64,000 nucleotides of DNA, taken from an uncultured Burkholderiales bacterium. Its GTDB lineage: Bacteria; Pseudomonadota; Gammaproteobacteria; Burkholderiales; Burkholderiaceae_C. The stretch covers positions 18,032-82,031 of the forward strand of contig CBIHMU010000014.1 in the NCBI GenBank assembly GCA_966211105.1. The letters are read 5' to 3'. Each line of letters starts with the position of its first letter. Position 1 is the stretch's first letter. The position numbers and the translations under genes were made by a program. Of this stretch, positions 36,936 to 39,022 are shown piece after piece. Below the pieces are notes generated by a model, which searched no databases, was not told where the DNA came from, and was given only the letters and a program-made list of their open reading frames with translations.

Positions 36936-37388
36936 TCAGGACTGCGTGGGCTGCGATGACACTTCCGCTGCCGAGCTTGCGAGCACGGTCTCATAGTCTC
37001 GGTAGGGGATTTCCGGCTCGACCAGATCCATGCCTGAAAAGTCCAGGTCGAAGCCTTCCTGATCCGAGTCTTCGTTATCGGAACTGGGCGTCGCGTGCTG
37101 ATCGATCTCCTCCGCGTGAGAGGCGCTGGGAGATTGAAGCTGACCGGTACGCGCCAGCGTGGCGACGTGACGCTGCGTCAGCGACGCGGGATTGTCACGT
37201 GCGTCCAGGACCAATCCTCTGGAAGAAGGCGACCCTCGAAGCGCGAGTGCCAGAGCATCTCGATCTCGCGGCCCGTTGTGGGTGGCGCCATCGGGCGAAG
37301 CGTCTGACAGGCTGCCAGCTTGCGCGGGGGAAGGTGCTGTCGCGTCATGATCATGCAAGGCGGTGTGCGTAGAGGCTGTGATCTTCAT
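36936..37388 (-). CDS. Hypothetical Ser/Pro/acid-rich, probably disordered protein
   Basis: 150-aa ORF in an AT-richer gap; no family recognised. Confidence 0.35.
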   Translation of the reverse strand: MKITASTHTALHDHDATAPSPAQAGSLSDASPDGATHNGPRDRDALALALRGSPSSRGLVLDARDNPASLTQRHVATLARTGQLQSPSASHAEEIDQHATPSSDNEDSDQEGFDLDFSGMDLVEPEIPYRDYETVLASSAAEVSSQPTQS

Positions 37389-37546
37389 CGGTGCAGGCTT
37401 TCGGTTGCGAATCGGAAATGCCGCTCATCGAACTGTCGATGTGTCGGCGGAGAAAGCGATTGGTGGCATGAAGCTTCCCGCGGGTTCCGGCGAGACAATG
37501 GCGCCGCTTCGTCCCGTTGTTCCGGTTGTTCCCGATGAATGCACGC

Positions 37547-38233
37547 ATGTCCCGACTCGCCACCGAATTCCAACGTCTCTATGCCGCCGGTCCTGAAGGA
37601 TCGGTGCGCGCGCTTGTGCTCGACGTCGGGCGCCCTTCCGATTGGGAGCTGATCGGCGCCGCCTGGCGCGGCGTTCAGCTCAACCTGTCGCTGCCCGCGC
37701 CGGGCATCGCCATCGCGGGAGAAAACAGCTATCAGCTGTGGTTCTCGCTTCAGCAAGGCTGTACGCCGGAGGAGGCGAGGGCCTTCTTCGATGGCCTGAA
37801 AGCGCGCTACCTGGGCGGCGTCGCCGCGCCACGAATCCGTTGCCTGACGGAGCCTCCAGCGGTGCCGAGCGAGGTCAATGAAGGGCAATGGTCCGCGTTC
37901 GTCGCGCCCGATCTCGCGCCGGTGTTCGTCGAGGCGACGTGGCTCGACATTCCGCCGGGCGTGGAAGGGCAGGCGGACCTGCTGAAGTCGCTGAAGAGCA
38001 TCGCGCGTCAGGAGTGGCTGGCCGCGCTGGAGCAACTCGCGCTGCCGGCAGCGCAAGACCTGGCCCCCGCGGTCACAACGCAGTCGCCCGAGGTCTTGCC
38101 GCTGGCCTCCTATTCGCCGGCTACCGGCTTCAGCGACCCGCGCGCGTTCCTGCTGCAGGTCATGAACGATGCGACCGTGCCGATGGCATTGAGGATCGAG
38201 GCGGCGAAGGCGTTGCTCCCTGCCAAAGAGTAG
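37547..38233 (+). CDS. Conserved hypothetical protein
   Basis: Coherent ORF (LPAPGIAIAG..YQLWFSL; WSAFVAPDLAP; FLLQVMND..RIEAAKALLP). Confidence 0.65.
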   Translation: MSRLATEFQRLYAAGPEGSVRALVLDVGRPSDWELIGAAWRGVQLNLSLPAPGIAIAGENSYQLWFSLQQGCTPEEARAFFDGLKARYLGGVAAPRIRCLTEPPAVPSEVNEGQWSAFVAPDLAPVFVEATWLDIPPGVEGQADLLKSLKSIARQEWLAALEQLALPAAQDLAPAVTTQSPEVLPLASYSPATGFSDPRAFLLQVMNDATVPMALRIEAAKALLPAKE

Positions 38234-38341
38234 ATTTGACTCTTATGGGGAGTGAACTTGGCGACATTCACATGCAAAGGCCAATGACGATTGCAATGCG
38301 ACCAGACAAAGTGGCTGCCTTCCTTCCCGGAGGTGCCACAT

Positions 38342-38791
38342 ATGTCTCCCGTCGTCGCCGCATCGCAAGCCATGGTCTCGCCCGCGGACCTCTATATCCT
38401 CGACGTCACCCAGTTCTCGAAGGATTTTTATCGGATGGGGAACGGGACGTGGCCCCTGTTCACTGACGAACGCGCGCGCATCGATGTCGCCGTCTCGGTG
38501 CAGAACGAGGTGGAGGTTGTGGTCGCCGATGGCAATGGGTTCTCTGCTTTCGACACCATCATTCCTGCGATGCGGCAGCAGGGGCGCAAGGTCTGGCGCA
38601 TCATGAAGGGCGCCGTGATTCCTCCGGAACTTGTTCTGGTGAAGGATCTGCGCCCCAACCACGCGGGGCACTACGTGATCGCGCCGGCCACGACGATGCC
38701 GTTGAAGAAATATCTTGGCGCCCTGGAGGAGCTCGGCATGGATCGCAACCGAGTTCAACTCATCGTTGAAGGAGATTCAGATGCCCGTTAG
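38342..38791 (+). CDS. Tse2-like ADP-ribosyltransferase-fold toxin (149 aa)
   Basis: GGAGG RBS then ATG. FYR, GFSAFD, KGAVIPPELVLVKD, HYVIAPATTM align by eye with the R/S/H motifs of P. aeruginosa Tse2. Confidence 0.75.
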   Translation: MSPVVAASQAMVSPADLYILDVTQFSKDFYRMGNGTWPLFTDERARIDVAVSVQNEVEVVVADGNGFSAFDTIIPAMRQQGRKVWRIMKGAVIPPELVLVKDLRPNHAGHYVIAPATTMPLKKYLGALEELGMDRNRVQLIVEGDSDAR

Positions 38792-38984
38792 GTTCATCGT
38801 CAGCGAATACAACCTGCTGTGGGAGGCGCTGAGGCACTATCGGCAGCACTTGGCGCATGTTTCGGCGAGTTCGTCGGATGAAGACGAGCAACTGCTCGTG
38901 GATGAGAACCTCGTCAAGCTCGACGGCATGTTCAAGGATGTGCAGATGGCCGCCAAACAGGACTGGGGCCTGAACCTGAAGTGA
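38781..38984 (+). CDS. Small acidic helical protein, putative Tsi2-like immunity protein (67 aa)
   Basis: GGAG RBS; overlaps the toxin stop by 11 bp; DEDEQLLV recalls Tsi2 ELEQLLV. Confidence 0.65.
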   Translation: MPVRFIVSEYNLLWEALRHYRQHLAHVSASSSDEDEQLLVDENLVKLDGMFKDVQMAAKQDWGLNLK

Positions 38985-39022
38985 CCGTCGTTGCTCAACG
39001 TTGATCCGGAACACCAACCACT

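Follow-up and report, generated by a model that had tools for sequence, protein, structure and literature searches.

A divergent Tse2-family toxin gene and its overlapping partner gene as a candidate orphan effector-immunity cassette in an uncultured Burkholderiales bacterium

Tse2 of Pseudomonas aeruginosa was one of the earliest antibacterial effectors of the T6SS to be described. Two small overlapping open reading frames (ORFs) in the genome of an uncultured Burkholderiales bacterium of the genus Roseateles raised the question of whether a Tse2-like toxin and its immunity protein are encoded there, and whether such a pair would serve as an Hcp-carried T6SS effector with its immunity protein or as a stand-alone toxin-antitoxin module. 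The window, that is, the whole stretch of DNA that was analysed, is 64,000 nucleotides long. The following features were recognized at the locus.

38223..39022, no strand: lower-GC insertion of about 0.8 kb with only the toxin and immunity genes inside (GC dip and empty site in sister genome G414)
38329..38333, + strand: GGAGG, Shine-Dalgarno sequence for the toxin gene, ending 8 nt upstream of its start codon ATG (sequence reading)
38342..38791, + strand: putative toxin gene, 149 aa (P0001), of a divergent short PF18648 subfamily (ORF, Pfam, hhalign, Foldseek and dN/dS)
38770..38774, + strand: AGGAG, Shine-Dalgarno sequence for the immunity gene, ending 6 nt upstream of its start codon ATG and within the 3' end of the toxin gene (sequence reading)
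38781..38984, + strand: putative cognate immunity (antidote) gene, 67 aa (P0002), predicted acidic helical hairpin of an unannotated family (toxin-coupled position, homologues, AlphaFold2 model and dN/dS)

The coordinates of the two ORFs and their overlap of 11 bp agreed with the original prediction, and all the motifs that it had named were found: Y30-R31, G66-F-S-A-F-D71, I93-P-P-E-L-V-L-V-K-D102 and H110-Y-V-I-A-P-A-T-T-M119 in the 149-aa protein, and EQLLV at residues 36-40 of the 67-aa protein. Both ORFs are real genes under purifying selection, because their homologues formed 68 (toxin) and 206 (67-aa protein) clusters at 90% identity in a large public protein collection, and because dN/dS against orthologues of the same genus was low (0.09-0.14 in the toxin gene, 0.16-0.22 in the 67-aa gene). 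The pair had also been described as lying in an AT-richer islet, and this was confirmed by the base composition. The GC content was 0.60 in the toxin gene and 0.57 in the immunity gene, against 0.696 in the window and 0.69-0.73 in the neighbour genes, and GC3 was 0.75-0.81 in the two genes against 0.89-0.97 in the neighbours. The GGAGG site of the toxin gene was kept at the orthologous loci of Mitsuaria sp. 7 and of sister genome G412. The AGGAG site of the immunity gene, which is placed inside the end of the toxin gene, gives the layout that would be expected for translational coupling. A consensus scan detected neither a sigma-70 promoter nor an intrinsic terminator.

Judged from its sequence, the 149-aa protein is a member of the Tse2 family, in which it represents a divergent short subfamily. 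It matched PF18648 (ADPRTs_Tse2) with 43.2 bits (E 8e-11), above the gathering cut-off of 26.6 bits, over profile positions 78-134 of 137 only, and a six-frame search of the genome with the same profile gave 42.6 bits at the toxin locus. PF18648 was the sole Pfam domain of the protein, and neither a signal peptide nor an N-terminal trafficking domain (PAAR, Rhs, LXG, MIX or similar) was found in it. The direct match with Tse2 (5AKO chain C) was weak, with E 0.45 by phmmer and E 0.27 by the subfamily profile, and the similarity seen by phmmer was limited to the C-terminal ~70 residues. The same genome carries a second gene on contig C66, a canonical Tse2-type gene of 154 aa, which matched the full PF18648 profile with 85 bits and, in comparison with the PDB, matched 5ako_C at E 3.7e-6. 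When the subfamily alignment of the 149-aa toxin (A2) was compared by hhalign with the alignment of the canonical 154-aa Tse2-type subfamily (A6, the first row of which is the C66 copy), the two were aligned over 100 columns, covering residues 24-134, with a probability of 98.1 and E 1.3e-13. The link of the 149-aa toxin to Tse2 is therefore firm, because the canonical subfamily, through the C66 copy, bridges to 5AKO.

An AlphaFold2 model of the toxin, built from 31 sequences, had a mean pLDDT of 72, with residues 31-46 below 50. When this model was searched against the PDB with Foldseek, 5ako_C was the sole match at E <= 1e-3 (E 1e-3, probability 1.00). The superposition gave a TM-score of 0.40 over 74 columns, in the C-terminal half only. 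The N-terminal third was modelled with low confidence and lies outside both the Pfam match and the 5AKO match. The PF18648 score, the hhalign homology, the sole fold match in the PDB and a conserved serine equivalent to S80 of Tse2, described below, agree in placing the protein in the Tse2 family, as the original prediction had proposed. The label "ADP-ribosyltransferase" is based on fold similarity.

A T79A/S80A double mutant of Tse2 is non-toxic (PMC3325213). In the phmmer alignment to 5ako_C (chain numbering offset 21), T79/S80 of Tse2 were opposite F67/S68 of the toxin; the position of T79 is thus Phe here, and S68 was invariant in the 31 sequences of the subfamily. R44, D48, D71, D102 and H110 were also invariant in these 31 sequences and, together with P115, were found at or beside invariant or nearly invariant columns of the canonical type, according to hhalign and the list of invariant columns in A6. 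R31 of the "YR" motif was invariant in the subfamily as well, and its region was unaligned with the canonical type. The N-terminal third has an invariant motif of its own, YRMGN-x2-WP-x-F ... R-x-R-x-D, which is covered by neither the Pfam profile nor the structural match. The subfamily is compact, with a mean column identity of 64% and a sharply defined invariant set (R31, N34, R44, D48, S68, D102 and H110), and all subfamily-invariant residues were present at this locus.

The downstream ORF had been predicted to encode a Tsi2-like immunity protein. What stood of this claim was a predicted acidic helical hairpin and the position of the gene; what did not stand was homology to Tsi2. In the AlphaFold2 model of the 67-aa protein (pLDDT 83.7), helices 2-30 and 34-62 span the whole length, and the calculated pI was 5.1. 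No Pfam or NCBIfam family matched the protein at E <= 1, and PF21643 (T6SS_Tsi2-like) matched nothing at E <= 1 across the whole genome. Tsi2 was not found among its PDB matches by phmmer or by profile search, nor was it among the top 50 PDB matches of the model in Foldseek, where no match had E < 1. With all of these searches negative, the 67-aa ORF was ruled out as a Tsi2 homologue. Matches to PPR proteins in the PDB profile search were dismissed as sums of sub-threshold repeats. The acidic helical hairpin predicted for the 67-aa protein, which Tsi2 has too, is a generic architecture.

From its sequence relatives, the 67-aa protein appears to behave as a cognate partner of an unannotated family that always follows the toxin subfamily. 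The assignment of the downstream ORF as the partner held up in this respect: it is always co-encoded with the toxin, with the same overlap. The immunity family had a mean column identity of 66% (38 sequences), and its only public name was "hypothetical protein". No sequence similarity was found between the 67-aa protein and the 74-aa ORF that follows the toxin copy on contig C66.

A gene of 66-70 aa overlapping the 3' end of the toxin gene was found in eight unrelated chromosomal contexts and on one plasmid. The overlap was 8-14 bp across contexts, 11 bp in most, and the toxins were 140-160 aa long. The hosts of the cassette were Mitsuaria sp. 7, Methylobacter marinus, a Steroidobacter MAG, Hahella sp. 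CCB-MM4 and several metagenome contigs; the contig scan for further loci, made with a single-protein query, gave at least three loci. In the contexts examined, no T6SS gene (hcp, vgrG or other) adjoined any copy of the cassette. The original observation that no hcp, vgrG or PAAR gene adjoins the pair within the window was correct. Integrase and transposase genes were not found within 6-8 kb of the cassette in any context listed, and the insert had no flanking direct or inverted repeats of note. Anti-phage defence or a phage origin was ruled out, as PADLOC and PHROGs gave no matches and none of 50,697 phage records contained the family. Among 72,556 plasmids, three carried the family. Two of them are chromids of 0.8-0.9 Mb, and the third is pPsKG3_2 of Pseudoalteromonas sp. 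KG3, a Rep-only plasmid of 3,799 bp with one diverged cassette (toxin 45% identical, partner 28% identical).

On one side the insert is bordered by the 3' end of a 238-aa gene conserved in the genus, and on the other by that of a convergent LysR gene. The upstream 238-aa ORF was considered as a third component and rejected: across the genus it is the neighbour of an epimerase gene whether the cassette is there or not, and the cassettes of other genera lack it. Sister genomes provided a series of states of this locus. The cassette was present at the same site in G412 and G417. In G414 (L028) the site was empty, the homologue of the 238-aa gene and the LysR gene being ~30 bp apart, and from this empty site the insert was delimited to about 0.8 kb. 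In G409 the toxin was reduced to its last 40 codons and the immunity gene was intact. G407 and G410, both 100% complete, had no PF18648 gene anywhere and carried an intact immunity homologue (60% identity) elsewhere, directly after a DUF4265 gene. Orphan immunity genes in such toxin-less relatives fit defence against neighbours better than addiction. We propose that the cassette spreads horizontally as a small unit.

The original prediction had suggested checking the genome for a T6SS, and a cluster of T6SS genes was found on contig C44. This contig carries genes for TssA/B/C, two Hcp, TssE/F/G, ClpV, two VgrG, DUF2169 and a PAAR-like Rhs toxin; the inventory stops at the contig end and covers components other than those of the membrane complex. 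TssC was found in all six other named genomes with the toxin subfamily, and also in the class-sample genomes G146 and G175. Counted by independent lineages, T6SS (TssC) accompanied the toxin subfamily in 6 of 6, against a background of 21% (84 of 400 genomes) in an even sample of the class, with counts uncorrected for genome size and phylogeny. Across PF18648 as a whole, TssC was present in 6 of 8 positive genomes and 78 of 392 negative genomes (Fisher p = 0.0014, likewise uncorrected). The PF18648-positive genomes without TssC, G037 and G377, both had more distant members of the family. Within the genus, T6SS is nearly universal, so the genus adds little to this co-occurrence test. In P. aeruginosa, tse2-tsi2 (PA2702/PA2703) is a bicistron outside the H1-T6SS cluster; because it sits away from that cluster, a window that holds no secretion genes is normal for such an effector. 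Tse2 is a proven cargo of Hcp1 (PMC8262886; PMC12133291), and the cryo-EM structure of Hcp1-Tse2 was reported in a 2026 preprint.

The evidence favours an effector-immunity pair over a stand-alone toxin-antitoxin module, because of the orphan immunity genes, the T6SS co-occurrence and the homology to an Hcp cargo, and because of the toxin-first order, a partner that has no DNA-binding domain and the absence of the family from phages and defence models. We consider that the pair is probably an orphan Hcp-cargo T6SS effector-immunity cassette of the Tse2 kind. The 149-aa protein would be a growth-arrest toxin that acts in the cytoplasm through a Tse2 (ADP-ribosyltransferase-like) core. With a mass of ~16.5 kDa, it would be small enough for the Hcp tube, and the T6SS encoded on another contig could inject it into neighbouring bacteria. 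The translationally coupled 67-aa hairpin would bind and block the toxin in the producer and its sister cells, probably by occluding the active site, by analogy with Tse2-Tsi2. The cassette may have been dropped between housekeeping genes as a horizontally moved unit. Toxicity and its neutralisation, the loading into Hcp and the export of the toxin by the T6SS are what we infer from these data. Some observations run against the effector reading: no copy is adjacent to T6SS genes, two PF18648 genomes are without TssC, one copy is on a 3.8-kb plasmid and resembles an addiction module there, the N-terminal third of the toxin model is of low confidence, and the partner has no homology to Tsi2.

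The pair could instead be a T6SS-independent toxin-antitoxin module for addiction or stress, in which the toxin would remain in the cell that makes it, with the small protein as its labile antitoxin, and the two genes would serve to maintain the DNA that carries them or to arrest growth on cue. This is conceivable but doubtful. It is supported by pPsKG3_2, where the cassette is among the very few genes of a Rep-only plasmid, a classical layout for post-segregational killing. It would also suit a cassette that occurs only as a lone bicistron at a distance from T6SS genes, and the two class-sample genomes that have PF18648 and no TssC. Against such a module stand the orphan immunity genes in toxin-less relatives and the T6SS in 6/6 independent lineages against the background of 21%. 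The toxin-first gene order argues against it, and so does the partner, which has no Pfam match and no DNA-binding domain of the usual type II kind; the model shows just two helices forming a hairpin. The family was absent from phages and found in 3/72,556 plasmids, two of them chromids, and Tsi2 is more stable than Tse2 in P. aeruginosa (PMC3325213). A dual-use or T6SS-independent toxin-antidote module, with plasmid or genomic addiction (as on pPsKG3_2) acting alongside or instead of a secreted weapon, is in our view unlikely.

Two further readings were considered. An effector-immunity pair might be delivered by another route, such as another contractile injection system or a contact-dependent pathway, or might be aimed at eukaryotic cells; the sequence does not specify a secretion route, and Tse2 is toxic inside bacterial, yeast and mammalian cells (PMC12133291). 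We regard this as improbable, since the toxin has no signal peptide, trafficking domain or second Pfam domain, it resembles a proven Hcp cargo in size and belongs to the family of that cargo, and a cytoplasmic immunity gene with orphan immunity genes in relatives points to bacterial targets. It is very improbable that the locus has lost its function and persists as an inactive or decaying remnant. A relative, G409, does have a shortened toxin, and the islet is a foreign insert of lower GC, but here both ORFs are intact with good ribosome-binding sites, dN/dS is 0.09-0.22, and the subfamily-invariant residues are all present. An Hcp-cargo effector-immunity cassette remains the preferred reading.

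The original prediction had pointed to the occurrence of such a pair outside Pseudomonas, which is not new. NCBI and UniRef already use the name "Tse2 family ADP-ribosyltransferase toxin" for homologues from Mitsuaria, Methylobacter, Hahella, Steroidobacter and others, and a Tse2-like effector of Pseudoalteromonas has been predicted (PMC11882849). The novelty is therefore modest, since homologue names are already in the databases and the literature. As far as the searched literature goes, what has no earlier description is the immunity family that belongs to the short subfamily, together with the presence/absence series in Roseateles/Mitsuaria. The original statement that the mechanism of Tse2 is unresolved agrees with a 2025 review (PMC12133291).

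The locus adds a well-delimited, conserved and divergent Tse2 subfamily with its own unannotated immunity family. The sister genomes amount to natural "experiments", namely an empty site, a shortened toxin with an intact immunity gene, and orphan immunity genes. This series could help to define the residues that matter across the Tse2 family, and could permit testing whether Tse2-type toxins always depend on a T6SS. About 200 "hypothetical" proteins of 67-70 aa could be annotated as immunity proteins. The compact subfamily could also be easier to work with than P. aeruginosa Tse2 in the search for the biochemical activity and the target of the family. The general picture of how such systems work is unchanged by this locus.

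Among known systems, Tse2-Tsi2 (PDB 5AKO, 3RQ9; PF18648, PF21643) is similar in that the toxin is a small stand-alone protein, 149 aa here and 158 aa in Tse2, and in the motifs that the two toxins have in common: GxSxFD, which holds the serine of the T79/S80 site, IPPxL...D and HYxIxPA. In both cases a toxin-then-immunity bicistron is found with no adjacent T6SS gene, in a host that has a T6SS and Hcp. The helices of Tsi2 (4-26 and 30-62; PMC3325213) and those predicted for the 67-aa protein (2-30 and 34-62) have the same topology. The 67-aa protein, however, is 10 residues shorter, does not have the C-terminal extension of Tsi2 and is less acidic (pI 5.1 vs 4.1). The canonical 154-aa type, to which the C66 copy belongs, is homologous to the toxin over ~100 columns with ~32% identity in the profile alignment, and has invariant positions R, D, S, D, W, D, H and P in common with it. 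It scores 85 bits over the whole PF18648 profile, against 43 bits over the C-terminal part for the toxin described here. A small helical ORF follows the canonical toxin too (74 aa at C66), but the partners of the two types are unrelated in sequence.

A more distant member is WP_033023891 of Pseudoalteromonas fuliginea BSW20308, a PF18648 protein in a T6SS-bearing host whose domain content led to its prediction as an effector (PMC11882849, PMC12628799). Some expression data exist for this protein: its mRNA is bound by CsrA, and it has been fused to GFP (PMC11882849, PMC12628799). We found a PF18648-type gene, 34% identical to the toxin, on the BSW20308 replicon NZ_CP013139.1, which may or may not be the gene of WP_033023891. 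Type II toxin-antitoxin systems with the toxin gene first, such as higBA, resemble the pair in having an overlapping bicistron with a small acidic, putatively neutralising partner, carried as a solitary horizontally moved cassette, and one homologue of the present cassette is on a tiny plasmid. The cassette differs from them in that its partner has no DNA-binding domain (HTH/RHH/AbrB-type) and that its family seldom occurs on plasmids and does not occur in phages. It differs also in its co-occurrence with T6SS and in the orphan partner genes carried by toxin-less relatives.

The putative toxin-immunity cassette is preceded by a gene conserved in the genus, which was found beside an epimerase gene in the sister genomes whether the cassette was present or not.

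Window 37517-38233, plus strand: 238-aa ORF
Window 36936-37388, minus strand: 150-aa ORF rich in Ser, Ala and Asp

No Pfam family was matched by the 238-aa ORF, and its C-terminal ~38 residues (FLLQVMNDATVPMALRIEAAKALLP) showed weak likeness to two families: phrog_641, which comprises phage small terminases (E 7e-6), and BPSL0761 of NCBIfam (E 0.08). The 150-aa ORF, which had no family match, lies inside the ~580-bp stretch that separates the epimerase gene from the 238-aa gene (window 36936-37516). This stretch was missing in sister genome G417 (Mitsuaria sp. 7 type), while G414 and a relative from a metagenome (L036) had different DNA in its place; it is a second variable spot, adjoining the cassette. 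The 108 bp directly upstream of the toxin gene (window 38234-38341) were kept across the genus orthologues, for example as GGTCAATGAC and CTTCCTTCCCGGAGGTG, and a simple scan of them detected no sigma-70 consensus promoter.

Outside the window, the same genome carries a second, canonical Tse2-family gene (PF18648, 85 bits), whose product also matched PDB entry 5AKO (E 3.7e-6), and a T6SS cluster.

Contig C66, 10277-10702 (locus L001, 1495-1959), minus strand: 154-aa Tse2-family gene
Locus L001, 1274-1498, minus strand: 74-aa ORF following it, with a 4-bp overlap
Contig C44, 19236-46152: T6SS cluster

The 74-aa ORF showed no match to Tsi2 (PF21643) or to the 67-aa partner encoded in the window. 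Sister genomes G409, G412, G413, G414 and G417 contain yet another PF18648 subtype, the third, with an ORF of about 141 aa that scores about 47 bits. The T6SS cluster includes a tandem pair of Hcp genes, two VgrG genes, DUF2169 and a PAAR-like Rhs toxin of 1727 aa. Not far past TssA the contig breaks off, which leaves the membrane-complex genes outside view.

In sister genome G409, both the toxin gene and tssC were degraded.

Locus L031, 1482-1797: toxin remnant (last 40 residues) and intact immunity gene
G409:C2:696432-697348: tssC, its match split and read through one TGA

These features may mean that weapon and effector decayed together, or may stem from an error in the assembly of this genome, which is 91% complete. 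A homologue of the immunity gene was also found in sister genomes G407 and G410, neither of which contains a PF18648 toxin.

L029 2094-2297 (G407) and L030 2094-2297 (G410), minus strand: orphan immunity homologue, 60% identical

Directly 5' of the homologue in both genomes is a DUF4265 gene (PF14085, 74 bits), of a family for which an immunity role has been proposed, and the two genes may form a small immunity-gene array.

A diverged copy of the cassette was located on a 3.8-kb Pseudoalteromonas plasmid, pPsKG3_2, that is Rep-only.

L042 (NZ_CP098526.1), 2056-2680, minus strand: cassette copy

Its toxin is 45% identical and its partner 28% identical to those in the window. Because this copy sits on such a plasmid, it suggests that the module may double as a plasmid addiction system.
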